This document shows positions 8,206 to 62,012 of a stretch of 64,000 nt of DNA, in pieces. Where the stretch lies: the IMG/VR virus record IMGVR_UViG_3300042894_003937; one strand, 5' to 3'. The stretch is from a virus (taxonomy: Duplodnaviria > Heunggongvirae > Uroviricota > Caudoviricetes). How positions within the stretch are numbered: position 1 is the stretch's first letter; the number at the start of each line of letters is the position of its first letter. Below the pieces are notes generated by a model. That model saw nothing but the letters and a program-made list of their open reading frames with translations. It was not told where the DNA came from and made no database searches. A program made the position numbers and the translations under genes.

Positions 8206-8413
8206 TATAGGATATGAAGCTACTCACCGTGGTGAAGCAGGGAATGTAAGAATTGTATTTAAGAGAGGTCAAGTATATGATACGTTATCTGAATATGATA
8301 ACTGTTATATGTTCTTATTTGACCACGACATTTATATTATAAAAAAACTGTACTTTCTGACATTAGAACAAGTAGCTAAGAGAAAACTATTCTCGTTTAA
8401 CAAAAAAGCTTAG
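8189..8413 (+). CDS. small hypothetical protein
   Basis: 74-aa ORF. Confidence 0.4.
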   Translation: MKVICNIGYEATHRGEAGNVRIVFKRGQVYDTLSEYDNCYMFLFDHDIYIIKKLYFLTLEQVAKRKLFSFNKKA

Positions 8414-9237
8414 GTTATTTTTTTACCTATTTTCAATTTTATTGAGTACAATCCATATCTTTTAGTAAACTGTTCAGTATCAATATTATCAATAATAACA
8501 TCCTCACACGAGTAGTAATATTTGCTACCCATAAAGGTTTGAAAACAAACAAACTCACTCTTTTTACAATCAAAATCCTCAAAATGAAAGTTGAATAAGT
8601 TATATTGTTTTGACAACATATGTAAGAATGGTATGAAATGATCTTTTACTTCATCCCAAGTAAATATCTGTGTAACACCTGATATTTTAATTACTACTTC
8701 GGTCATATGACCACCATACTGTTCAGTATATTCAACCTCAAAGTTTTTATCTGTAAGGTAAGCTAAGTGAGTATCACAGAAGTCTTCAAGTTCTTCTTTT
8801 GGTGATAAACTCTCATTAAGTTGTTCTTTCTCACCAGATAAATATATATCTATGTAAGATACTACCTCAGTGGATAGTTTATCTAACTGATTTTCAAAGT
8901 TATCTCTGATTACTAAATTTATAGTAGGTCCTAAAATTTTAATTTCACTGATTTCATATTCCTTTTCTAATCTTACACAAAAAGGAATAAAATGATCCTT
9001 AATATCACCCCAATTAAAATCTTCTCTTTCTACACCTCTCTCCGCTCTCTGTTTTAAAGTTAAAGATTCTTTTTTAATTCCAATTGAAACATTTCCTATT
9101 GCATATTGTTGACCAACTCTTATTCGGAAACCTTCATCCATAAGATAAGCTAAATTAGTCTCACAATACTCAGTAAGTTCATTCTTTTGATCTCTCGACC
9201 ATCTATCAAATGCTTCAAATAATTTTATATACTTCAT
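8410..9237 (-). CDS. Fam-A paralog, two-domain (two LAYL..DHFIPF units)
   Basis: MKYIKLFEAF..; EYCETNLAYLMDEGF and DFCDTHLAYLTDKNF; GDIKDHFIPF and DEVKDHFIPFLHML. Confidence 0.7.
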   Translation of the reverse strand: MKYIKLFEAFDRWSRDQKNELTEYCETNLAYLMDEGFRIRVGQQYAIGNVSIGIKKESLTLKQRAERGVEREDFNWGDIKDHFIPFCVRLEKEYEISEIKILGPTINLVIRDNFENQLDKLSTEVVSYIDIYLSGEKEQLNESLSPKEELEDFCDTHLAYLTDKNFEVEYTEQYGGHMTEVVIKISGVTQIFTWDEVKDHFIPFLHMLSKQYNLFNFHFEDFDCKKSEFVCFQTFMGSKYYYSCEDVIIDNIDTEQFTKRYGLYSIKLKIGKKIT

Positions 9238-9668
9238 TTCTTATCATTTATTGTTATAGAGATCTTATCGAGCATCAAATATTTTAAATCTTCTTCATCA
9301 AGTAAATCTTGTAATGAATAACAAATACCACGCATACTTTCATCATATATTACATACGGTTTATCTGACCTATTACTGGATGAATCCTCTAATTCATAAC
9401 GTCTTTCTAATAGTTGTAAAAATGGTAAAATCCTATCTTTTACTGAATCCCAAGAAGTACCTTCATCTTTCTCTATACTTATATTTATACATCTACTATC
9501 AACTGGTATATAACCTTTTTTGGTATTCCAAATCCTAAAATCTATTTCCCAACCTTCATCAACTAAATAAGCTAATGATTGTTCAGTAAGATCCTTTACC
9601 TCTTCTAAAAGATTATCATAATATAATTCAACATCTTTCCAAGATTCAAATAAATTTATATACTTCAT
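9234..9668 (-). CDS. Fam-A paralog
   Basis: MKYINLFESW..LAYLVDEGW..DSVKDRILPFLQLL; ATGA overlaps on both sides. Confidence 0.7.
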   Translation of the reverse strand: MKYINLFESWKDVELYYDNLLEEVKDLTEQSLAYLVDEGWEIDFRIWNTKKGYIPVDSRCINISIEKDEGTSWDSVKDRILPFLQLLERRYELEDSSSNRSDKPYVIYDESMRGICYSLQDLLDEEDLKYLMLDKISITINDKK

Positions 9669-10525
9669 CTTTCCTTTACTATTATTCTTATCCTAGTATA
9701 AAACTTATTGGTAAGCCACTGATCTGCTTCACCACTTACAAGCTCTTCTATATCTTTTCTAGTATCATATTGGTACTGTCTTCCACCATTTTGATAAAAT
9801 ACTATTTCTAAAATATGATACTCTTTATTCAACATATAAATATACGGTGACAATCTATCAGTAATCTCCTCCCAAGTGAAACCCGAACGTTTAACTATTC
9901 TCGTACAAATACAACCAGCATAATTATTAGAACGGTCTGTTACCGGATTATCAGTAGTACCAATCTCAAACCCATCATCCATAAGGTAAACTAAACGATC
10001 CTGAGTAAATTCAAGAACATCATCTTTAAGACTTTCATTAGTTCTCAGTTGCCAAGAATACTGACCAACACTATGATCTAATACAACTACCCTAACAGAA
10101 CTAATTAAAGTAGCATGTTCATAAGAATGATTTTTATAACCTTTAGTCAAACTGAAAATCTTTTCTTTTACCTTGTCATCAATAACATCCTGAAAACTCA
10201 TCTTAACTTGAGCACCTCCTCTAATTTGAAAAAAGATTAAGTTATCCTTAATATCATACTGCTTATCTAAAATCTGTAGAAATGGTATAAATCTATCCTT
10301 TATATGATCCCAATCCATCCAATCAACCGTTCCACCAGCACCAGGTACCCAATTACCATACTGAGTATTATATTTAGGATTAACCAAATCTATTTGAGTT
10401 ACTCTACCGGATTCTCTAAAGTCTAAAGCATAACCATCATCTAACAAATAAGCTAGATACTGCTCACAGAAATCTTTTATCTCACCTGGTTCAATTGCTT
10501 CATTAAATTTCTTTAAGTATCTCAT
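9665..10525 (-). CDS. Fam-A paralog, two-domain
   Basis: MRYLKKFNEA..DFCEQYLAYLLDDGY..IKDRFIPFLQIL plus a second LVYLMDDGF..ITDRLSPYIYML unit. Confidence 0.7.
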   Translation of the reverse strand: MRYLKKFNEAIEPGEIKDFCEQYLAYLLDDGYALDFRESGRVTQIDLVNPKYNTQYGNWVPGAGGTVDWMDWDHIKDRFIPFLQILDKQYDIKDNLIFFQIRGGAQVKMSFQDVIDDKVKEKIFSLTKGYKNHSYEHATLISSVRVVVLDHSVGQYSWQLRTNESLKDDVLEFTQDRLVYLMDDGFEIGTTDNPVTDRSNNYAGCICTRIVKRSGFTWEEITDRLSPYIYMLNKEYHILEIVFYQNGGRQYQYDTRKDIEELVSGEADQWLTNKFYTRIRIIVKER

Positions 10526-10543
10526 AGAACTATATATTAAATC

Positions 10544-10996
10544 CTATTTTTGATCTTCATGCAACAAAATGTAAAAAGAAATACTAACAACATTATCTAA
10601 TGAAACCGTATCTAAATCTTGAATCTTATAATATGAAGTTGATGGTATATTATCCTCATCACGACAAGTAAAGATTATATCATCACCATTATGTTTATAA
10701 ACCTCTAAAATATGATACTTCTTCTTTAAATGATAAACAAATGGAATAAATTGATCTTTAACTTCATCAAAACTAAATGGATTGAATGTATAATGAGGAT
10801 CACTTTCTTCTCTTTTAAGAAAAATAAAGGTAGAAACTAGTTGATTATTTGCATTCACAAAAGTATCACTTCTAAATGAGTAACCATCATCTGCTAAATA
10901 AGCTAAATGAGTAGAACAAAAATCATCCAACTCTTGTCGTAATGCTTTTCTTTGTGGACGATTTAAAGCCTCGTTAAACCTTTTTAAATGTTTCAT
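10544..10996 (-). CDS. Fam-A paralog
   Basis: MKHLKRFNEA..DFCSTHLAYLADDGY..DEVKDQFIPFVYHL. Confidence 0.7.
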   Translation of the reverse strand: MKHLKRFNEALNRPQRKALRQELDDFCSTHLAYLADDGYSFRSDTFVNANNQLVSTFIFLKREESDPHYTFNPFSFDEVKDQFIPFVYHLKKKYHILEVYKHNGDDIIFTCRDEDNIPSTSYYKIQDLDTVSLDNVVSISFYILLHEDQK

Positions 10997-11011
10997 ATAT
11001 TATTTTATTTT

Positions 11012-11944
11012 TTAGTAAAATTGTACTTGTAATTCATAGAATTGTTCAGGAACATCCTGATCCTTTATAACATTTCTAATATCCATATAATAAAAATCTG
11101 CATCATAAACATCAGGTAAGAATCTGTCAAACACAATCGTTCTGTTTCTAGGATTATCATCTATGTAAACTGCCTTTTTTTGCATATGACGAACAATTTT
11201 TTCACGTGGCTCAATACTATACTCTCTTATCAACATATGTAAAAAAGGTATAACCTGATCTTTAACATCATTCCACTGAATTAGATCTTGAGCTCCTTCT
11301 ATAGTACGTCCATCATAACTAATATTTCTTGTTAAACTAACAAAGTAAGATGGTGATGCTCTGTAACCAGACATTTCCCATGTTACACTTAATTGATAAG
11401 TAGTATCATCTAAAAGATTTGCCAAGTAATTTGAACAGAACTCTCTAACATCATCGACACCACCGGCAGATTCATTATAACTCTTTAAGTATCTCATTAA
11501 AGATTCTTGTTCTTTAGTATCATTCTCTAACATTATTTCAATATATTGAATCTCATCATCATCTTCATACCAATTATCCACAACTCTTATAAACTTCTCA
11601 TAAGTGAATTCTCTTGATTCATGTCTCTGACGAACTTCAATCACTGAACCATTATCAGAACCAGAATCATCAAACTTATAATTCTTATGTAACTGAATCA
11701 CAAATGGAACAACATGATCTTTAACTTCACCCCAGTTGAAATTAGTTCTCATTACCTGACCTGAACCTAAATCAACTGTCTTACATAAAATAACCGAAAC
11801 AAATCGAGAAGGTTTCTTCCAATCAGTATCTTCAATTCTTATCTCAAAGTCAGGATCATCCAATAAGTAAGCCAAGTTTGTCTCACAGAAATCTTTCAAC
11901 TCATCTTTATCTAAACTCTCAAAAATCCTTTTTAAATATTTCAT
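11012..11944 (-). CDS. Fam-A paralog, fused doublet (internal MRYLKSYNES leader)
   Basis: MKYLKRIFES..DFCETNLAYLLDD..GEVKDHVVPFVIQL, then internal MRYLKSYNES..EFCSNYLANLLDD..NDVKDQVIPFLHML. Confidence 0.7.
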   Translation of the reverse strand: MKYLKRIFESLDKDELKDFCETNLAYLLDDPDFEIRIEDTDWKKPSRFVSVILCKTVDLGSGQVMRTNFNWGEVKDHVVPFVIQLHKNYKFDDSGSDNGSVIEVRQRHESREFTYEKFIRVVDNWYEDDDEIQYIEIMLENDTKEQESLMRYLKSYNESAGGVDDVREFCSNYLANLLDDTTYQLSVTWEMSGYRASPSYFVSLTRNISYDGRTIEGAQDLIQWNDVKDQVIPFLHMLIREYSIEPREKIVRHMQKKAVYIDDNPRNRTIVFDRFLPDVYDADFYYMDIRNVIKDQDVPEQFYELQVQFY

Positions 11945-12825
11945 TTTGTATCTTCTTTTTCTGTTAAAATAATCTGTAATCTAATTCTAATATCACCAAA
12001 ATAATACTGACCTGCAGCAGTCTTAAAAGACATAACAATCTTCTTACTAGCAAAATTATCCGATAAACTTAATAAAATCTTATCAGCAGCATCCTGTGCG
12101 AAAAACTCAACCTGATTCAATATATCAGATCTAAAATTAGATAACGGAACTGGCTTCTTAAATTGATTAGTAGTGAATACTCTCATCGGTTCAGACCTTA
12201 CACCAATTATCACATTCTCATATATAATACCTGTTCTTAAAATAGATTGCCACTCTTCCGTAGTAAGTGCTCTCTCCATAGAAATTGCTGTCATTGGTTC
12301 AATATTATCAGGACTTTTAGTAACCCTAACCCCTTCAAATCCAGAATCCAATAACTCAACCAAATAATGTTCTACATCATCTGTCTTTAATTCAACAGAC
12401 TCTTTAATAGGTTTCTTTTTTTCAGACCTGTAAGTCCAAGATTTGAGATCTACCCAAACTAAAATCTGTATTAAAGGTTCATTATCATATACATTTGGTA
12501 AAGGATTACCAGATAAAATTGTTTCAATATCAAACTCCGTATCATCATCTCCATCATAAAACTCTATAGTCTGATCTATTATATTATAATCTCTGTTTAA
12601 CATATGTAAAAATGGAATATATGACTCTTTAACATCTAACCAAGTAAAATCAATCACCTCATTATCAACCTTACCCAAACTTATCAAAAATGTCTTATTA
12701 TTATTTGTAGGTGAAACTTGTATTTTGTAACCATCATCTAACAAATAAGCTAGATAAGACTCACTAAAATCACGTAGCTGTGATTCTATATCAACAGACT
12801 CATTAAATCTTTTTAAATATCTCAT
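11941..12825 (-). CDS. Fam-A paralog with C-terminal extension
   Basis: MRYLKRFNES..DFSESYLAYLLDDGY..LDVKESYIPFLHML. Confidence 0.7.
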   Translation of the reverse strand: MRYLKRFNESVDIESQLRDFSESYLAYLLDDGYKIQVSPTNNNKTFLISLGKVDNEVIDFTWLDVKESYIPFLHMLNRDYNIIDQTIEFYDGDDDTEFDIETILSGNPLPNVYDNEPLIQILVWVDLKSWTYRSEKKKPIKESVELKTDDVEHYLVELLDSGFEGVRVTKSPDNIEPMTAISMERALTTEEWQSILRTGIIYENVIIGVRSEPMRVFTTNQFKKPVPLSNFRSDILNQVEFFAQDAADKILLSLSDNFASKKIVMSFKTAAGQYYFGDIRIRLQIILTEKEDTK

Positions 12826-13292
12826 TCTACCAATTTATTTTTCATTCCAACCTGAAGTGTAATCTCTAATAAAGGAACATCATCATATCTACCAGGTAAA
12901 GGATCACCAGATAAAACATCCTTAATCGAAACACAAAAGTTTTGACTACCATTATATAAACAAATACAAGGAACATCCCATTGTCCTGCGTTTCTACTTG
13001 CTTCACCTTTATCCATTATCTCATACTGCTTATCTAACATATGTAAAAAAGGAATATAAGAATCTTTAACCTCATTCCAAGTAAAACCAGTTGCTTTTCC
13101 CCATCCTAAATCCCAATTTAATTTACATAGATTTATATTATAATCATCTTCTTCTCTTCCTAAATAACCGTGTCCGTTCCAGATAACAGATAATTCAAAA
13201 TCACCATCCAACAAATAAGCTAGATAAGTCTCACAGAAATCTCTTAAATCTTTCTCTAAATCAACAGATTCAAATGTTTTTAAATACCTCAT
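12822..13292 (-). CDS. Fam-A paralog
   Basis: MRYLKTFESV..DFCETYLAYLLDGDF..NEVKDSYIPFLHML. Confidence 0.7.
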   Translation of the reverse strand: MRYLKTFESVDLEKDLRDFCETYLAYLLDGDFELSVIWNGHGYLGREEDDYNINLCKLNWDLGWGKATGFTWNEVKDSYIPFLHMLDKQYEIMDKGEASRNAGQWDVPCICLYNGSQNFCVSIKDVLSGDPLPGRYDDVPLLEITLQVGMKNKLVE

Positions 13293-13759
13293 ATCTTTAT
13301 AGTATTTTTTACTACAATACCAATCTCTTTTATATCATCACCAGTCCAATAATCTGGTCTTTTCACAAGTCTTTGACCCCAATCCTCAATCTCATCTGCT
13401 TTCAAAAATAATTGATTTCCCGACATAAAATTGATAATAATACTCGACTCCCTCTGATCTAAATCTTTATCATTCAAATCATACTCTCTTGATAAAATAG
13501 TAACAAATGGAATATAATAATCTTTAATGTCATTCCAATGAAAAGGTTGAATACGACGATCCACTAAAGTTTTACCCAACCATATAATATACGAGTCCCA
13601 GGCAGATTTAGCTCCAGACCTTTCAGTATCAATAACTTCTATCTTAAAACTCGTATCATCCAATAAGTAAGCTAAATAAGTCTCACAGAAATCTTGTAAC
13701 TCTACTTCATCAACCTGACTATATAAATCGTTCTCGAAAATCTTTTTTAAATATTTCAT
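13289..13759 (-). CDS. Fam-A paralog
   Basis: MKYLKKIFEN..DFCETYLAYLLDD..NDIKDYYIPFVTIL. Confidence 0.7.
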   Translation of the reverse strand: MKYLKKIFENDLYSQVDEVELQDFCETYLAYLLDDTSFKIEVIDTERSGAKSAWDSYIIWLGKTLVDRRIQPFHWNDIKDYYIPFVTILSREYDLNDKDLDQRESSIIINFMSGNQLFLKADEIEDWGQRLVKRPDYWTGDDIKEIGIVVKNTIKI

Positions 13760-14202
13760 ATCTTACGTTTTACTTTAAACATTATTTTTCTAACTGGTTG
13801 ATTACCCGGTATTAAATCATTTAGTATCTTTTCCTTTGGTACATTCGCGCCTGAAAAATCTACCAAATTATTAACAAGACTTCCGTCTTTCATACTACGA
13901 GAAACACTAGGTATCAATTCATAATTATCTATCAAAACTTTGAAGAATGGTATAAAATAATCAGATACATCATCCCAAGTAGCATTAGGATAACTATGTG
14001 ATCCATCAGCATTCGTTTCATATCTTCTCCAAATCATACAGTCATAATAACCAGTATTTGGATAAACTGAAGTTCTCATAGCAATGTCTATTCGCCAATT
14101 ACCATCATCTAATAAGTAAGCTAAATACATCTCACAGAAATCTTTTAACTGCTCATACTCATCTCTATTGACCTCTTCAAAAATTTTTCTTAAATACTTC
14201 AT
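13756..14202 (-). CDS. Fam-A paralog
   Basis: MKYLRKIFEE..DFCEMYLAYLLDDGN..DDVSDYFIPFFKVL. Confidence 0.7.
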   Translation of the reverse strand: MKYLRKIFEEVNRDEYEQLKDFCEMYLAYLLDDGNWRIDIAMRTSVYPNTGYYDCMIWRRYETNADGSHSYPNATWDDVSDYFIPFFKVLIDNYELIPSVSRSMKDGSLVNNLVDFSGANVPKEKILNDLIPGNQPVRKIMFKVKRKI

Positions 14203-14216
14203 ACTCTATATATTAT

Positions 14217-14636
14217 TTAAAAATTTCTAAACCACGCTTTTTCAACCCTTTCTCCCTTTTTAACAACCCTAATGTATAAAGTAGCTATCTCAGTATCATC
14301 TGGTAAATCATTTATCTGATTTAATGTTAAAGGCTTTTGTTTAATACCAGAACCACCATGAAAAACAATACCCATAGCAGGTTCAACATCATTATCATAA
14401 TATAATTCGTAATACTTAAATAGAAAATGTAAGAAAGGTAGAACCTGATCCTTTACTTCAGACCATAAAAAATTAATTGGCTCAGAAGTACCCAACATTA
14501 TCTGATGATAATCATCTCCTTCAAACTTTGAAATCCTTACTTTAAAACCCTCATCTAACAAATAAGCTAAATTAGTCTCACAGAAATCTAATAACTCTTC
14601 TTTTAAACTCTCATTGAACTTTCTCAAATGTTTCAT
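14217..14636 (-). CDS. Fam-A paralog
   Basis: MKHLRKFNES..DFCETNLAYLLDEGF..SEVKDQVLPFLHFL. Confidence 0.7.
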   Translation of the reverse strand: MKHLRKFNESLKEELLDFCETNLAYLLDEGFKVRISKFEGDDYHQIMLGTSEPINFLWSEVKDQVLPFLHFLFKYYELYYDNDVEPAMGIVFHGGSGIKQKPLTLNQINDLPDDTEIATLYIRVVKKGERVEKAWFRNF

Positions 14637-14644
14637 ACCTAATC

Positions 14645-15490
14645 TTATTTTTCTTTAATCATAATACCCACCGAATATATACCTTGCTTATCCGAATAAG
14701 AACCAAATAAAGTATCATTCACCACCGAATATAACGGGAAATCACTAAACGCCTCATCAGTATAACCATGATGTAATCTAAACCTAACCTGACTTGTCGA
14801 ACGACCATCTTTCCTCGGATTACCAAATCCAATAATCTGATACCTATTATGTAATAACTTTAATAACGGTATGTAATAATCCTTTATATCATCCCAAGTG
14901 AAAGTATCACTCTTAAGCGCATATTGATTACTAAGTGATAACCAAATCGCAGTAGTATCATCCTCTGAACCTCTAGGAATAAAAATACGAAAACCCTCAT
15001 CCAATAAATAAGCTAAACAACTTTCTACGAAATCCGTTAACTCATCCTTATCTATACTCTCATTAAACATCTTCAAATGTTTCATACCATCCTTTTTAAC
15101 CACAATCGAAAAACTATAAAATAACATATCATCTCGTAAATCCTCTAACCGATCTATATCCTTAATATGTATATCATCCGAATAAGTCGCTTCTATCCTA
15201 ATAATCGATGAACTGCCCTCATAACCCACCTGATACCTATTAGATAACATCTGTACAAAAGGAATAATACGATTCTTTACCGATGACCACTCAACATCAT
15301 CATGATGAATCCTATTGTTTCTAACCGACCTAGGCGATAACAAAACAATCTTATACGATGTAGTAAATCCCCACACCGATACCGACCACTCATCATCGAT
15401 AAGATAAGCTAAGTAATCATTAGCAAACTCCTGTAACTCTGCCCTTTTATCAGTAGATTCATCATTGAAAGCTTCATTCAAATACTTCAT
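14645..15490 (-). CDS. Fam-A paralog, fused doublet (internal MKHLKMFNES leader)
   Basis: First unit EFANDYLAYLIDDEW..SSVKNRIIPFVQML; second unit starts with an intact internal leader MKHLKMFNESIDKDELTDFVESCLAYLLDEGF..DDIKDYYIPLLKLL. Confidence 0.7.
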   Translation of the reverse strand: MKYLNEAFNDESTDKRAELQEFANDYLAYLIDDEWSVSVWGFTTSYKIVLLSPRSVRNNRIHHDDVEWSSVKNRIIPFVQMLSNRYQVGYEGSSSIIRIEATYSDDIHIKDIDRLEDLRDDMLFYSFSIVVKKDGMKHLKMFNESIDKDELTDFVESCLAYLLDEGFRIFIPRGSEDDTTAIWLSLSNQYALKSDTFTWDDIKDYYIPLLKLLHNRYQIIGFGNPRKDGRSTSQVRFRLHHGYTDEAFSDFPLYSVVNDTLFGSYSDKQGIYSVGIMIKEK

Positions 15491-15924
15491 ACCTTTTCAC
15501 CTTTAATTTTAAATTGAATTGTATAAATCTTATAATCATCACGAAGACGACTAGAAGGAACAATCTGCTCCGATATAATATCATCCATATTAAACCAATC
15601 AGAATATGTACTCTCCAAACCAATTATCTCAATTCTTACATTAGGCGAAACAAGCCTACGATCCATCGTAACTAAATCATACCCATTTCTTAAATGTGTC
15701 AAAAATGGTATAACCTGATCCTTTATCTGACCCCACCTCTTATTAGCAAATAATCTAAATGATAACGTCACCTTATAATCTATAATCTTTAAATCAAAAT
15801 AATCTGGTGAAACCAAAACCCTTAAACCATCATCCATCAAATAAGCTAAGTGAGTCTCACAGAAATCTTGTATATCTTGCTCAGTTAAATCTTTATTCTC
15901 ATTATATCTTCTCAAATGTTTCAT
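15487..15924 (-). CDS. Fam-A paralog
   Basis: MKHLRRYNEN..DFCETHLAYLMDDGL..GQIKDQVIPFLTHL. Confidence 0.7.
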   Translation of the reverse strand: MKHLRRYNENKDLTEQDIQDFCETHLAYLMDDGLRVLVSPDYFDLKIIDYKVTLSFRLFANKRWGQIKDQVIPFLTHLRNGYDLVTMDRRLVSPNVRIEIIGLESTYSDWFNMDDIISEQIVPSSRLRDDYKIYTIQFKIKGEKV

Positions 15925-15927
15925 ACA

Positions 15928-16464
15928 TTATTTATTATTTTCAAAGTTAATTAAAATCGGATCTTTGTAAATATATCCATTTTCAATTCTCTGTGTTTGT
16001 TTAGCATTAGGCCAATAAGAAACAAGTTTATATAAACTTTCACATACTTTTATTGAATTTTTATATTCTTTTCTTACTTCACCATTTACTATCCATTTAT
16101 TTCCATGTACATATACCTGATTCGATTTCTTTTCTTTAATATCTTCCATATTATTATAAAATATTATCTCACTATGCCACTGAATATCAAAAAATATACT
16201 ATACTTTTCCATTCCTAGCTTTGTACCCTGATATATCACATCTTCAATATCATCTATATTATGATGACCTGTCAAAATAATATCAATATCAAGTGGTGTA
16301 CCTTCATCATTTAGTAATTTATTCGCAAAACTTCCTAATAACAAAACATCAAATTTTTCCGCATTCGGTATTTTAAAAAAATCCTCTCGCCAAGCAAAAA
16401 ATGACTCTACACTTGGCGACTTCCAATTTATATCTATATCTATTTTTCCGTATTTTATATTCAT
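15928..16464 (-). CDS. putative nucleotidyltransferase (pol-beta superfamily motif GS-x15-DIDI)
   Basis: LLLGSFANKLLNDEGTPLDIDIILTG fits hG[GS]..[DE]h[DE]h; further acidic residue in FFDIQ; 178 aa. Confidence 0.45.
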   Translation of the reverse strand: MNIKYGKIDIDINWKSPSVESFFAWREDFFKIPNAEKFDVLLLGSFANKLLNDEGTPLDIDIILTGHHNIDDIEDVIYQGTKLGMEKYSIFFDIQWHSEIIFYNNMEDIKEKKSNQVYVHGNKWIVNGEVRKEYKNSIKVCESLYKLVSYWPNAKQTQRIENGYIYKDPILINFENNK

Positions 16465-16590
16465 TATTCTAATTTATTTTATCACTCACTAAACCCCTAC
16501 GTGCGTCAGCACGTTTACGACTCCGACGACCCACATTCTTCTTGCCGAAGGCAACGACTCCACCGAAACCCAATTGGTCCCACCACAATC
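16465..16590 (-). other. GC-rich intergenic island with three short palindromes (candidate structured leader / ori / pac-like element)
   Basis: acgtgcgtcagcacgt, ttgccgaaggcaa, ccaattgg; direct repeat acgactcc x2; compositional outlier in an AT-rich genome; immediately upstream of the nucleotidyltransferase start. Confidence 0.4.
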
Positions 16591-17034
16591 CTAATCCTTC
16601 TTTAAACCCTTAACCGTCAACTTAACCGTAGTAACCAAAAAATCCGGTGCTCCATCATTTACTATCTGATCCACCGTAAATACCTTCTTATTTATATCCA
16701 ACTGCTCGGTACTATAAAAATGAATCCATTCAGACAAATCATACCTCCTAGATAATATACGAACCAACGGGATAAACCTATCCATCACCAAAGAATAATC
16801 ATATAACTTATTAGTAAATCTGCCTATTTGGTCTGGACGACCATCAGTTAAAGATAACCTTATATCAAACTCACCATTCCAAGCCGGTCTTATCTCATAC
16901 GTAAATCCATCATCCGACAACGGTGCCAAAAATTGCTCACATAAATCATCCAACCCATCCTGTAAATCATCACCTTTCAACCTAACATAAAAATCTGACT
17001 CCATAAAACTTTTTAAATACCTCATCATATACAT
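16591..17034 (-). CDS. Fam-A-like paralog (divergent)
   Basis: MYMMRYLKSFMES..DLCEQFLAPLSDDGF..MDRFIPLVRIL. Confidence 0.65.
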   Translation of the reverse strand: MYMMRYLKSFMESDFYVRLKGDDLQDGLDDLCEQFLAPLSDDGFTYEIRPAWNGEFDIRLSLTDGRPDQIGRFTNKLYDYSLVMDRFIPLVRILSRRYDLSEWIHFYSTEQLDINKKVFTVDQIVNDGAPDFLVTTVKLTVKGLKKD

Positions 17035-17052
17035 ATATATAAATCTTTAATA

Positions 17053-17661
17053 ATGAAACTATCATCCGAACTAAAAAAATTTATAGATAAAGAATACTCC
17101 AATCACCAATGCTTCCCACCTAAACACCTTATACTACACGCACTAAACAACATAGAAAACACCAAAGTTATCATCATAGGTCAAGACCCCTACCACGGCC
17201 ATAACCAAGCTCACGGTCTAGCTTTCTCCACACTCGACACCACAATCCCACCTTCTCTGAAAAACATCTTTAAAGAGCTTAATAACGATTTAAACATCGA
17301 AACACCAACACACGGTAACCTAACCCATTGGCATAACCAAGGAGTACTTCTTCTCAATACAATACTAACAGTAAGAAAACACCAACCACTATCCCATAAG
17401 AATAAAGGATGGGAACAATACACCAATAACATTATATCAGAACTAAATAATAATAAGAATAATCTCGTATTCATTCTATGGGGTTCACAAGCTCACAAGA
17501 CAGAGAAACTTATCGATACGAATAAACACCTTATATTAAAGTCTGGCCATCCATCACCACTATCCGCTAATGCAGGGAAATGGTTCAATAATAAACACTT
17601 TAGTAAAACGAATCAATATCTCACAGAGAATAATATAACACCTATCGACTGGACACTATGA
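17053..17661 (+). CDS. ung: uracil-DNA glycosylase, family 1
   Basis: GQDPYHGHNQAHGLAFS, VLLLNTILTVR, GHPSPLSA and PIDW are collinear with E. coli Ung; catalytic Asp and His motifs are intact. Confidence 0.92.
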   Translation: MKLSSELKKFIDKEYSNHQCFPPKHLILHALNNIENTKVIIIGQDPYHGHNQAHGLAFSTLDTTIPPSLKNIFKELNNDLNIETPTHGNLTHWHNQGVLLLNTILTVRKHQPLSHKNKGWEQYTNNIISELNNNKNNLVFILWGSQAHKTEKLIDTNKHLILKSGHPSPLSANAGKWFNNKHFSKTNQYLTENNITPIDWTL

Positions 17662-18762: not shown

Positions 18763-18864
18763 ATGAGTTATGCTGATTGGGCTAAACGGGTTCATAGACC
18801 GACGAATTTAAAGTGGATAAGAAAGAACTCACGAATGAGAAAGATTAAAAGGATATATGAATAA
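18763..18864 (+). CDS. tiny basic peptide, Fam-D (MSYADWAKRVHRPTNLKWIRKNSRMRKIKRIYE), 33 aa
   Basis: Hand translation; RMRKIKRIYE core. Confidence 0.35.
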   Translation: MSYADWAKRVHRPTNLKWIRKNSRMRKIKRIYE

Positions 18865-18868
18865 TGAT

Positions 18869-18905
18869 AAAACCCACTTAATAGTGGGTTTATCTGTTAT
18901 TATTT
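18869..18905. terminator. hairpin terminator aaaacccact-taat-agtgggttt plus T-rich tail; identical copy at 21755-21790
   Basis: 9-10 bp GC-containing stem, 4-nt loop, followed by atctgttattattt. Confidence 0.55.
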
Positions 18906-21699: not shown

Positions 21700-21754
21700 C
21701 CGGATTTTAAACAATGAGACTTGGTATTCTATATTAGAATGAGTTGGATATGAT

Positions 21755-21790
21755 AAAACCCACTTAATAGTGGGTTTATCTGTTATTATT
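21755..21790. terminator. hairpin terminator identical to the one at 18869-18905
   Basis: gataaaacccacttaatagtgggtttatctgttattattt. Confidence 0.55.
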
Positions 21791-21799
21791 TTAGTTAAC

Positions 21800-22496: not shown

Positions 22497-24305
22497 TTAG
22501 TTATATACTCTTATTTCGATTGGAGTTCTTAATATTAAATCGTCTGCACCAGTACTACTCTGATTAGTTGCTATATATATATCATTAGAAGTAGTGTCTT
22601 CATTATCAACATAAAAGTCATAATCATTGATAGCCCAATGATTTTTACAAAAGAACACTACGGTTTTTAATAAAGGAAATCCACCAGTACTACTTAAAAA
22701 ATATAAACCGGGAGAGTCTCTATTCCAAACGGGAGTAAAACCTAAAGTATTTTCTAACACAGAGGCTGTTGGTGATGCTGTACCACTCTGTGTTAATATA
22801 GCGGTATAAACTTTATATTTTGGTGCATAAGCCGTAGTTTGAACCGAATTATCTGGGAATGTTATACTTCCAGTTGTACCAAATACCCAGTTTTCAGGTC
22901 CATCATTATCACCAGTTTGTATAGTAACAGTTCCATTATCAGCAATCACTCTACCACTCTGATAACGAATTATTTCTATATCTATTCCAGTTATAGCCAA
23001 ACTCGCAGTTGGTGCATTCTGGTCCACGGTTAAAACTATTGGGTTTGACTGGACCTTATTCGTGATATTTAGGCTTACTGCTGTAGTTGGATCGTAAAAC
23101 ACTGTAAATATGTCTGTTGCTACTTGATAACCGTTTATGAAATTTACTAGAGTTGAATCTGGATTAGTAATAGTTATCAGATTGCCAGACCATGTAGCAG
23201 AATCATAGTTAGATCCTACAGAGCAACTTGCAGAATCTTGAGTGTATAAATTCTTTGAATTTATTTGTACTGTTTTACTAGTGTCACTAACTTTTAAGTT
23301 ATTATCTTCACCACCAATGAATAGATCAGTTGCACTATCATCGATAGGACCACCTGCACGAATATGTATATGATTAGGACTTCCTTCAGTAGGATCTAAT
23401 ATAATGTATTGGTCAGTTTCTAAAGAAGAATCTGGTTTTAATACTATTATTGGACCAAGACCAAGATTGACTGATTCTATTTGACTACCATTAGAATTTA
23501 TAGCACCAGTAATATTCACATCACCATCTACATCTAAAGCTACTGATGGATTGGTTGTTCCTATACCTATCTTACCATCATTAGTAATTCTCATTCTTTC
23601 ATCACCATCAGTTTGCACGATTACGTTTCCTCCCGCGGTGCCTCCACCTCCTGCGTTTATAACGATATTACCACCAGTATTAGCTCCGTAACCAGATTCA
23701 ATGTATACTTCACCACCATAACCATTATTACTTTGTCCTGCATATATTTCAACAAAACCACCATCACCTGTATCTGTGTATCCACCTCTTATCTTAACTG
23801 TACCTCCTTCTGAGATACCTTCTCCTGCATCAACTTTAATATCTCCACCATTTTGTCCTTTACCGGCCCATAGGTAAATGTCTCCACCTTCGCCACTGTA
23901 GGTAAGTCCATTTTGATAACTATCACCACCAGATATGACTAATCTTTCAACGGTCGGAGCAGATCCTGTTCCATCTTGAGTTGATATGATTTTTTGGTAT
24001 ACACTTCCTTTTTCAAATTGAAGGTTATCTCCGCTTCCTGTTCTTTGGTTACCTGGTAAGAATGGAAAACTAATTGCACCGGTTGTACCAAACCCTGCAG
24101 GTCCTGTAGCACCTTGTGGTCCAGTAGGTCCTTGAGGTCCTGTAGCACCATTTATACCAGAAGGTCCTGTAGCACCGGCAGGTCCAGTAGCACCAGAACC
24201 AGAGTTTGTTAAACCAGCTAACTGATCTTCTAAATAGTGAAAGTTGTTATCCATTTGAGCAACTGATAATGCACCGTCTTGTTCTGATCTATATGTAATA
24301 CCCAT
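22497..24305 (-). CDS. collagen-like repeat tail-fibre-like protein, long paralog
   Basis: 602 aa; G-X-Y collagen-like repeats (GATGPAGATGPSG..); Gly-rich beta-rich middle; C-terminal domain shared with the short paralog. Confidence 0.75.
   Translation of the reverse strand: MGITYRSEQDGALSVAQMDNNFHYLEDQLAGLTNSGSGATGPAGATGPSGINGATGPQGPTGPQGATGPAGFGTTGAISFPFLPGNQRTGSGDNLQFEKGSVYQKIISTQDGTGSAPTVERLVISGGDSYQNGLTYSGEGGDIYLWAGKGQNGGDIKVDAGEGISEGGTVKIRGGYTDTGDGGFVEIYAGQSNNGYGGEVYIESGYGANTGGNIVINAGGGGTAGGNVIVQTDGDERMRITNDGKIGIGTTNPSVALDVDGDVNITGAINSNGSQIESVNLGLGPIIVLKPDSSLETDQYIILDPTEGSPNHIHIRAGGPIDDSATDLFIGGEDNNLKVSDTSKTVQINSKNLYTQDSASCSVGSNYDSATWSGNLITITNPDSTLVNFINGYQVATDIFTVFYDPTTAVSLNITNKVQSNPIVLTVDQNAPTASLAITGIDIEIIRYQSGRVIADNGTVTIQTGDNDGPENWVFGTTGSITFPDNSVQTTAYAPKYKVYTAILTQSGTASPTASVLENTLGFTPVWNRDSPGLYFLSSTGGFPLLKTVVFFCKNHWAINDYDFYVDNEDTTSNDIYIATNQSSTGADDLILRTPIEIRVYN
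24202..24305. repeat. about 104-bp near-identical repeat (fibre gene 5' end), copy 2
   Basis: Matches 22287..22390. Confidence 0.6.
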
Positions 24306-24353
24306 GATTTATATTTATGTTTTTTTATATACTATATATTTAATATAAATATT

Positions 24354-33236: not shown

Positions 33237-33253
33237 ATGGTTTATTTATTTGT

Positions 33254-33353
33254 AGTCAGGACAGGATTCGAACCTGTATGTAACTTTATGTTTCCACTCC
33301 GTCTATAGTTACTACGGTATACTTAGCGTCTTACCAATTCCGCCACCTGACTA
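33254..33353 (-). tRNA. tRNA-like gene (Leu-like D-arm; canonical acceptor and T arms; anticodon arm not resolved, about 100 nt)
   Basis: Minus-strand RNA AGTCAGG-TG-GCGGAATTGGTAAGACGC..ACAGG-TTCGAAT-CCTGT-CCTGACT; 7-bp acceptor stem, GGTTCGAATCC T-arm, GGCGGAATTGGTA D-arm; no canonical 5-7-5 anticodon arm found by hand. Confidence 0.45.
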
Positions 33354-61912: not shown

Positions 61913-61920
61913 ATTATTTG

Positions 61921-62002
61921 ATATTGGGATAGGACTCGAACCTACAACGATACAACCTTTGAAAGGATGACATGCCTTTTTGCCATTACGTACTACCCAA
62001 TA
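61921..62002 (-). tRNA. tRNA-like gene (canonical acceptor and T arms; middle non-canonical; possible UCA anticodon loop)
   Basis: Minus-strand RNA TATTGGG..GTAGG-TTCGAGT-CCTAT-CCCAATA-T; candidate anticodon loop TTTCAAA flanked by an imperfect stem CATCC/GGTTG. Confidence 0.4.
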
Positions 62003-62012
62003 ATTGTTCTAT

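Follow-up and report, generated by a model that had tools for sequence, protein, structure and literature searches.

A conserved non-coding island with two invariant hairpins between co-oriented genes of uncultured AT-rich very large phages

A GC-rich island located between two genes of the 64-kb window (the whole stretch of phage DNA that was analysed) is best read as a non-coding intercistronic element, present in single copy and ancestral in a clade of uncultured phages that are AT-rich and very large. The island is a new sequence family; the kind of element is familiar. Its adjacency to the 178-aa ORF that follows it in the window is incidental. As to its role, sequence comparisons lead us to favor, tentatively, a cis-acting intercistronic leader in which the hairpins would serve as recognition signals controlling the gene array located downstream.

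The island fills the gap between two minus-strand ORFs, paralog 1 and the 178-aa ORF (coordinates of all features are listed in Table 1). Its core, nucleotides 16487-16586, has a GC content of 56%, the joint-highest value among the 100-nt windows of the 64-kb stretch (mean 0.302, sd 0.056). This bears out the preliminary description of this DNA, which had reported here a GC-rich patch of 100 nt in an AT-rich genome; the values are 56% vs 30% GC. The other window with 56% GC, 24094-24193, is accounted for by the collagen-like G-X-Y repeats of a 602-aa ORF (22497-24305, minus strand). Among the 26 intergenic gaps of at least 60 nt, the complete island, with a GC content of 0.48, is an outlier; the next value is 0.38, which belongs to a tRNA-like region, and most gaps range between 0.09 and 0.30. 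The sense strand is G-rich, with 40 G and 16 C per 100 nt. Three perfect palindromes had been proposed within the patch. The three sequences are present, but the 16-mer and the 13-mer are stem-loops rather than perfect palindromes, namely ACGTGC-GTCA-GCACGT (6-bp stem, 4-nt loop; hairpin 2) and TTGCC-GAA-GGCAA (5-bp stem, 3-nt loop; hairpin 1), while the third is the 8-bp palindrome CCAATTGG at 16570-16577. The loop of the 13-mer had been described as a UUCG-type tetraloop on the minus-strand RNA, but it is a UUC triloop, as the c(UUCG)g register produces a C.C mismatch. The direct repeat acgactcc x2 was found in its expected place; as a 13-nt imperfect direct repeat (ACGACTCCGACGA / ACGACTCCACCGA) it occupies 16517-16529 and 16554-16566. 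When the 100-nt core was subjected to 5000 dinucleotide shuffles, two hairpins, each with a stem of 5 bp or more, appeared in 1.1% of them, and two hairpins plus an 8-bp palindrome in 0.24%. An exact 8-nt direct repeat occurred in 8.8% of the core shuffles and is within chance.

Table 1. Features of the island and of the genes that flank it
Feature	Position	Strand	Remarks
Upstream gene (paralog 1), first of the leftward array	16591..17034	-	likely start ATG at 17025
TAG stop and G/U-rich block GAUUGUGGUGGG	16579..16593	-	alignment of 13 copies
Whole island, 126-nt non-coding spacer	16465..16590	-	between the TAG that ends the upstream gene and the ATG of the following ORF
Variable linker that includes the first direct-repeat copy and the palindrome CCAATTGG	16555..16578	-	
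Hairpin 1, UUGCC-UUC-GGCAA	16542..16554	-	stem invariant in 13/13 copies; sole change is loop UUC to UAC in L146
Block around hairpin 2, GGGUCGUC.G.GUCGUAAAC-hairpin-(A)GGGGUUU	16491..16532	-	conserved in the alignment
Hairpin 2, ACGUGC-UGAC-GCACGU	16499..16514	-	invariant in 13/13 copies, including the 5 copies fetched by means of the flanking protein alone
Lineage-variable segment AGUGAGUGA, about 9-10 nt	16482..16490	-	between GGGGUUU and the A-rich tail
A-rich tail UAAAAUAAAUUAGAAUA, read as SD-less translation start region	16465..16481	-	directly before the ATG
178-aa ORF, earlier "NTase"	15928..16464	-	inserted, in this lineage only, between the island and the following paralog
Downstream array, MKYLKxFNE..DFCE.YLAYLLDDG paralogs	8410..15924	-	tightly packed, gaps of 0-18 nt or overlaps

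Thirteen distinct copies of the island were identified in metagenomes, eight by a hairpin pattern scan and five through the flanking protein alone. The metagenome scan looked for the two hairpin cores and fixed the hairpins by construction; therefore, five loci were fetched using only orthologs of the upstream protein (59-79% amino acid identity). In all five the island directly follows the TAG stop, hairpin 2 is identical, and hairpin 1 is identical in four; the gap measures 112-135 nt, or at least 153 nt up to the contig end in L148. The scan itself returned mostly chance matches, plus nine AT-rich contigs with true copies of the island at 82-89% identity. In those that reach far enough in either direction, the island is flanked by the orthologs of paralog 1 and of the next paralog (window 15487-15924). 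In every relative that is not rearranged, the same upstream gene ends in TAG, the island comes next, and then the following paralog of the tandem array. Absence from related genomes had been named as an observation that would speak against the element, but the island is kept in all the relatives of the locus examined, and nhmmer detected one copy per related locus and no second copy in the 64-kb window. Searches of a cultured-phage collection by megablast, blastn, and tblastn identified no relatives, and searches of IMG/VR with the ORF, the hairpin 16-mer, and an upstream-protein profile produced only chance matches to the 16-mer.

The 13 copies were aligned and read 5' to 3' on the sense strand. 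After the TAG stop there is a G/U-rich block ending in TTGTGGTGGG, followed by a variable linker, hairpin 1, a second linker, GGGTCGTC.G.GTCGTAAAC, hairpin 2, (A)GGGGTTT, an optional segment of about 10 nt, and TAAAATAAATTnnnnTnATG. The TTGTGGTGGG sequence is near-invariant (12 of the 13 copies, with one substitution in L018), and the 9-nt unit TTGTGGTGG is duplicated in L150. Another 9-nt unit, GUCGUNNNN, occurs two to three times in the block around hairpin 2, and L149 has one additional 9-nt unit, GTCGTCNGN. The linker that precedes hairpin 1 measures 24, 23, 25, or 15 nt, with only about 5 nt remaining in L035, and the linker between the hairpins (the GGCA-to-GGGTCG stretch) measures 14, 18, 20, or 21 nt. 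In most relatives CCAATTGG is replaced by CCAATCAGG; neither this palindrome nor the direct repeat is conserved, and the two repeat copies vary independently among relatives. The segment AGUGAGUGA is missing in 7 of the 13 copies, and UAAAAUAAA is invariant in all of them, irrespective of the gene that follows. A comparison of six unbiased sequences showed variation in one out of 29 columns in the hairpins vs 49 out of 98 in the rest of the island (Fisher p = 2e-6). By this measure, selective conservation within the island is confined to the two hairpins. Parts of the neighboring coding sequence match the island core in nucleotide-level conservation, and consequently part of the conservation of the island reflects shallow divergence. 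The argument for function then rests on the contrast within the island, on its retention in every relative, and on the maintenance of GC against AT pressure, the island keeping 48-56% GC vs 30% for the genome.

The preliminary description had considered the island as a leader or small RNA controlling a nucleotidyltransferase gene, the 178-aa ORF. This ORF is absent from all nine contigs recovered in the scan; the arrangement is island, inserted ORF, and paralog in the window lineage, and island followed by paralog in the relatives. The insertion occurred exactly at the start codon, and TAAAATAAATTAGAATAATG was retained before the new ATG. Judging from these alignments, the ORF is a recent insertion behind the island that is restricted to the window lineage; as a newly inserted gene, it does not have the island as its own control element. 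Homologs of the ORF (53-89% identity) occur in different surroundings, where the gaps measure 0-18 nt and the island is missing upstream. What stands of the original proposal is a conserved, leader-like element attached to whichever gene start follows; what does not stand is its specificity for this ORF, which has homologs without the island, as there are relatives that have the island without the ORF. Three near-identical contigs, L017, L018, and L020, also include the island, with two SNPs inside it in L018. Contig L019 is a mosaic: it matches the window at 99.6% identity from position 16594 onward, precisely from the 5' edge of the island, and what precedes that point is unrelated. Here the upstream gene has been replaced, yet the island remains joined to the downstream gene. 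The right end of L019 is shared without differences with another strain, L084, and L019 could be an assembly chimera. Directly upstream of the island, L019 (135-180) has two copies of a 17-bp inverted repeat, TTTCACAAAAAGTGAAA, that has no counterpart in the window and, from its sequence, looks like an operator.

The label "nucleotidyltransferase" for the 178-aa ORF must be considered a motif-level guess. The protein has the motif hG[GS]x9-13Dh[DE]h and a third carboxylate, with G44-S45, D59-x-D61, and D93 invariant in 11 homologs, and the predicted order of its elements is strand-GS-helix-strand(DxD). Beyond this G-S...D-x-D motif the label found no backing. There was no Pfam match (DUF6932 matches four members of the family, best E = 0.022), comparison with PHROGs gave no support for an NTase, a PDB sequence profile search gave E > 1, and no NTase was among the Foldseek matches listed (TM about 0.3) for the AF2 model (pLDDT 64.5). 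In the more distant relatives L029 / L030 (433-kb contig ERZ27280238 k141_468807), members of this ORF family adjoin DnaJ-like and LAGLIDADG-like genes, surroundings that differ from those in the window.

In the window, two reading frames run through the island uninterrupted, and a small basic protein could be encoded there, either by a 39-aa ORF with a TTG start (16469-16588, minus strand) or by read-through of the TAG. This explanation is scarcely credible. Both the 39-aa ORF and the frame that follows the TAG are open because the sequence is G-rich and has no stops. Among relatives, the island has indels of 1 nt and 2 nt, and in-frame stops occur in some copies; indels that are not multiples of three, together with these stops, exclude coding. 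Both SNPs in L018 are non-synonymous in both frames, and the codons CGT, CGG, GGC, and GTC found in the island are rare in the genome, where 71% of Arg codons are AGA and GGC, GTC, and CGG reach 4%, 6%, and 1%. Gene callers predicted no ORF in the island except for a 29-aa call in L149. Stop-codon recoding, considered for the open frames and the conserved TAG, was rejected when neither TAG nor TGA produced a gain in ORF coverage, and the unusual tRNA at 33.25 kb cannot clearly be taken for a suppressor. Read-through or hopping at GAU-UAG-GAU was also rejected, the context not being conserved in relatives.

No evidence was found for a stable fold of the island as a structured leader RNA. ARAGORN, run with and without the intron mode, identified no tRNA or tmRNA in the island. 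The comparison with Rfam 15, which had been suggested as a check, recognized no family either at gathering thresholds or at E values up to 10, the best match being snoU105B with 13.3 bits vs a gathering threshold of 49 (E = 7.5). Folding z-scores of the sense-strand sequences tested were -1.8, -1.4, -0.5, -0.5, -0.5, -0.8, and +0.95, with no excess over shuffles, and the plus strand of the window, with -1.3, was no better than shuffles. RNAalifold and explicit pair counts showed that the 15 tested pairs were kept wherever present and that none was changed on both sides, i.e., there was no covariation. The stems of both hairpins never vary and are hence uninformative about RNA pairing. A candidate third helix (GRUUG...CAAUY) varies only from G-C to G-U and from A-U to G-U, and is missing in L035. 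These G-U changes fit a sense-strand RNA, since they would be mismatches in DNA, and the third helix may be taken as weak evidence for such an RNA. A common global RNA fold was discarded because the individual variants fold inconsistently. The element looks like two short recognition hairpins with conserved flanks rather than a compact folded RNA.

Both hairpin stems are purely Watson-Crick, and a site recognized at the DNA level fits them equally well. According to this explanation, the inverted repeats would be operators for dimeric proteins or part of a phage-specific promoter, and the array would be initiated independently of paralog 1. The invariance of perfect stems together with their loop or spacer is what duplex recognition is expected to produce, the island moves with the downstream start region, and the folding and covariation analyses gave no signal for RNA. 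Nonetheless, we consider a DNA site unlikely. None of the sigma-70-like sites listed falls within 16465-16590, and the island has neither a TAHHTTTG box at a usable distance nor ATATATAC; the nearest promoter look-alike in it is the non-conserved TAAATTAG, at 4 nt from the ATG. Lineages differ by about 10 nt in the spacing between hairpin 2 and the ATG, the two palindromes have no sequence relationship and would need two different proteins, and a promoter class would recur, while there is no second copy in the 64 kb or at other loci. The motif ATATATAC is enriched in the window, with 17 occurrences vs 8.7 +/- 3.0 expected (none of 100 shuffles reached 17), and is a candidate phage-specific promoter with very short leaders. 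It is located in many intergenic regions (e.g., 19471, 25637, 31094, 35178, 42456, 42506, and 53106), 4-25 nt before start codons and often as divergent pairs. A close variant is present before paralog 1, and the motif is absent from the island; the promoter-like sequence TATATATA(T/A)GTAT lies just before the ATG of paralog 1 in most relatives.

A scan for intrinsic terminators found no sites in the island, where hairpin 2 is followed by GGGG and then by a run of no more than 3-4 U. The terminator-like hairpins of this genome, AAACCCAC-TTAATA-GTGGGTTT, differ in form from those of the island. This hairpin, probably the standard bidirectional terminator of the genome, is contained in an exact 42-nt direct repeat (18864-18905 and 21750-21791), and there is a similar one near 24330.

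The island was also proposed to be a replication origin, consisting of iterons and palindromes next to an AT-rich unwinding element, or a packaging (pac/cos) site; a single-strand initiation site belongs to the same group of explanations. The cluster of hairpins does adjoin an AT-rich stretch, a divergent gene boundary is about 0.5 kb away, the local minimum of the cumulative GC skew is near 17-18 kb, and the G-rich sense strand could favor an R-loop. However, the supposed iteron (acgactcc x2), a repeat within chance, and CCAATTGG are not conserved, and the AT-rich flank, although present, is the A-rich region just before the next ATG, i.e., the translation start region of the next gene. Moreover, the skew minimum coincides with the switch in gene orientation, all flanking coding sequence has the same G excess, and in the rearrangements observed the island has not been separated from the gene start next to it. 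A function in replication or packaging is judged improbable; the proposed origin found no support, and none of the observations points to pac/cos.

More than 10 tandem paralogs of the form MKYLKxFNE..DFCE.YLAYLLDDG occupy the minus strand from 17 kb to 8.4 kb, and a UDG gene diverges at 17053. The island sits between two co-oriented genes of an array that has no other intergenic space, its remaining genes being 0-18 nt apart or overlapping. Given this packing, the promoter-like motif at paralog 1, the lack of a promoter motif and of a terminator in the island, and its constant place before whichever start codon follows, the island would most likely be transcribed within a leftward operon and act in cis as a checkpoint for the downstream array. 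The comparisons show a conserved, non-coding island with a defined position, selectively invariant hairpins, and a traceable insertion history; we infer that it is transcribed, that it acts at the RNA level, and that its role is regulatory. The cis-acting leader that we tentatively favor would work as follows. The island would be transcribed as part of a polycistronic RNA that starts at the promoter-like motif ahead of paralog 1, and the downstream paralogs are presumed to be co-transcribed through it. The two invariant stem-loops, with their GUCGUAAAC and GGGGUUU flanks, would be recognized by a putative protein or by the elongating polymerase, and these signals would set the extent of transcription or translation into the downstream array, possibly in the form of leader-type pausing and antitermination or of a processing checkpoint. 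The A-rich tail would supply an SD-less start for the next gene.

An RNA decoy against host defense, e.g., a solitary hairpin resembling a CRISPR repeat, would also combine short GC-rich hairpins, conserved flanks, and an intergenic position in a phage. We take the stem and loop sizes of the island to resemble those of class 1 CRISPR repeat hairpins, a likeness that is useful only as a lead. Neither a promoter nor a terminator of its own was found for such an RNA, and we regard the decoy as very improbable.

The small-protein family with the N-terminus MKYLKxFNE and the motif DFCE.YLAYLLDDG is greatly expanded at 8410-17034 (minus strand), with more copies near 34.2-34.8, 53.1-53.5, and 60.8-61.0 kb, and some members are fused into two-domain proteins. 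It matches neither Pfam nor PHROG families. The 3' end of the upstream gene has a 9-nt direct repeat at 16609-16629 (plus strand CTTAACCGT x2; sense ACGGTTAAG-TTG-ACGGTTAAG) that encodes TVK-L-TVK, and its 15-nt core, ACGGTTAAGTTGACG, is identical, including synonymous sites, in the six sequences compared.

A further explanation is that the island is a REP-like, domesticated hairpin module acting as a 3' stabilizer of mRNA or as a processing barrier, in which case paralog 1 would be expressed above the array. Such a module may derive from GC-rich hairpin elements of AT-rich bacteria. Contig L068 (Ga0247611_10079210; 27% GC, AT-rich, and bacterial-looking) has, at 2100-2600, five tandem intergenic units after an rsmG-like gene. 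Each unit reads TGCTCAAGCGCCGCAGGGGCTAAGTCGTTGTGC[CTTCGG or TGAC]GCACAACGTTTTTTT and forms terminator-like hairpins, and no Rfam family matches these repeats. The L068 hairpins share with the island the UGAC loop and the AGTCGT(T) 5' flank, and their UUCG loop includes the UUC of the island, a likeness that exceeds what the search pattern demanded. In addition, the island starts right after a stop codon, and the copy number of its 9-nt unit changes. Against a REP-like origin, the island is a single copy fixed at one locus in every relative, with no presence/absence polymorphism, and L019 retains it without the upstream gene. The L068 hairpins are followed by T-runs and those of the island are not, and searches of GTDB representative genomes with an island pattern and an L068 pattern gave no match. 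This explanation is distinctly unlikely. More speculatively, and with little weight, the two hairpins preceded by AGUCGU could belong to an undescribed family of portable hairpin modules shared by Bacteroidota-type megaphages and AT-rich bacteria, domesticated as a recruitment site that would render the phage polymerase resistant to termination over the 9-kb early array or as a decoy for a host defense nuclease that recognizes hairpins.

The genes of the window are small, densely packed, and often overlapping, and they lack Shine-Dalgarno sequences. Bacteroidetes genes typically have A-rich starts that lack an SD (PMC6847099). Several TATCTTTG or TATATTTG boxes, which match the Bacteroidetes -7 element TAHHTTTG (PMC6847099), are found about 20 nt before start codons, although the motif is not enriched overall. 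Homologs of the local proteins are encoded by contigs of 433 kb and 635 kb, and phages larger than 634 kb have been predicted to infect Bacteroidetes (PMC7162821). Taken together, the SD-less genes, the TAHHTTTG-like boxes, the large contigs with homologs, and that prediction point to a Bacteroidota megaphage, and the phage clade that has the island probably infects Bacteroidota. Two other RNA-like features were noticed in the window. A tRNA-like gene at 33252-33352 (minus strand) scores 37 bits against the Rfam tRNA model, and its anticodon arm contains, or is followed by, about 26 additional nt; it was missed by default ARAGORN, while the intron mode called it as tRNA-Val(aac), assigning it a long extra arm and an intron of 5 nt. 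The intergenic region 61913-62012 (minus strand, 36% GC) has a tRNA-like T-arm and acceptor end (GGTTCGAGTCCTATCCCAATA) and was recognized by neither ARAGORN nor Rfam.

Very large Bacteroidota phages are known only from metagenomes, and the control of their gene expression is almost unknown. A conserved, easily recognized, single-copy island at the head of a large paralog array provides a handle for mapping transcripts in metatranscriptomes from lakes and for finding the factor that would read it, and its interest is mainly for the field of megaphage gene regulation. The history of the locus also shows that accessory genes can be slotted exactly behind an existing, putatively regulatory spacer, and it advises caution: an intergenic element should not be named after the gene that happens to be its neighbor in one genome.

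Several known systems share properties with the island. PeSL cassettes of T4-like phages consist of a stem-loop and an early promoter flanking shuffled accessory genes. Like them, the island is found in a hyperplastic, paralog-rich region and has breakpoints exactly at both edges (at 16594 in L019 and at the ATG where the ORF was inserted); unlike them, it is not repeated before each gene and has no recognizable promoter. REP/BIME elements are intercistronic hairpins of enterobacterial operons, and those of the malE-malF type stabilize mRNA. The island resembles them in that its GC-rich hairpins lie between two genes of what would be one operon, right after a stop codon, and in that a related hairpin module is multi-copy in the AT-rich bacterial contig L068. 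It differs in being single-copy, with two mutually unrelated hairpins, no linked RAYT transposase, and no sign of mobility. The leader hairpins of LoaP, lambda nut, and HK022 put are leader elements of processive antitermination, and lambda nutR follows the first gene of its operon. As in these leaders, the island has short hairpins with conserved flanks near the head of a long, putative multi-gene operon, its conservation is sequence-specific rather than fold-specific, and, like nutR, it follows the first gene. Unlike antitermination leaders, it lacks a boxA or ops consensus, and, unlike in ops/pause leaders, the lineages do not share a conserved pause consensus after hairpin 2. In Bacteroides, the leaders of long operons contain pause hairpins, and hairpins of the non-template strand recruit NusG paralogs; in the CPS operons, ops sites with pause hairpins recruit UpxY (PMC11685472). 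The host phylum of the island is likely the same as that of the UpxY systems, and, by analogy, the UpxY-recruiting leader hairpin with ops would be its nearest mechanistic precedent in the presumed host phylum.
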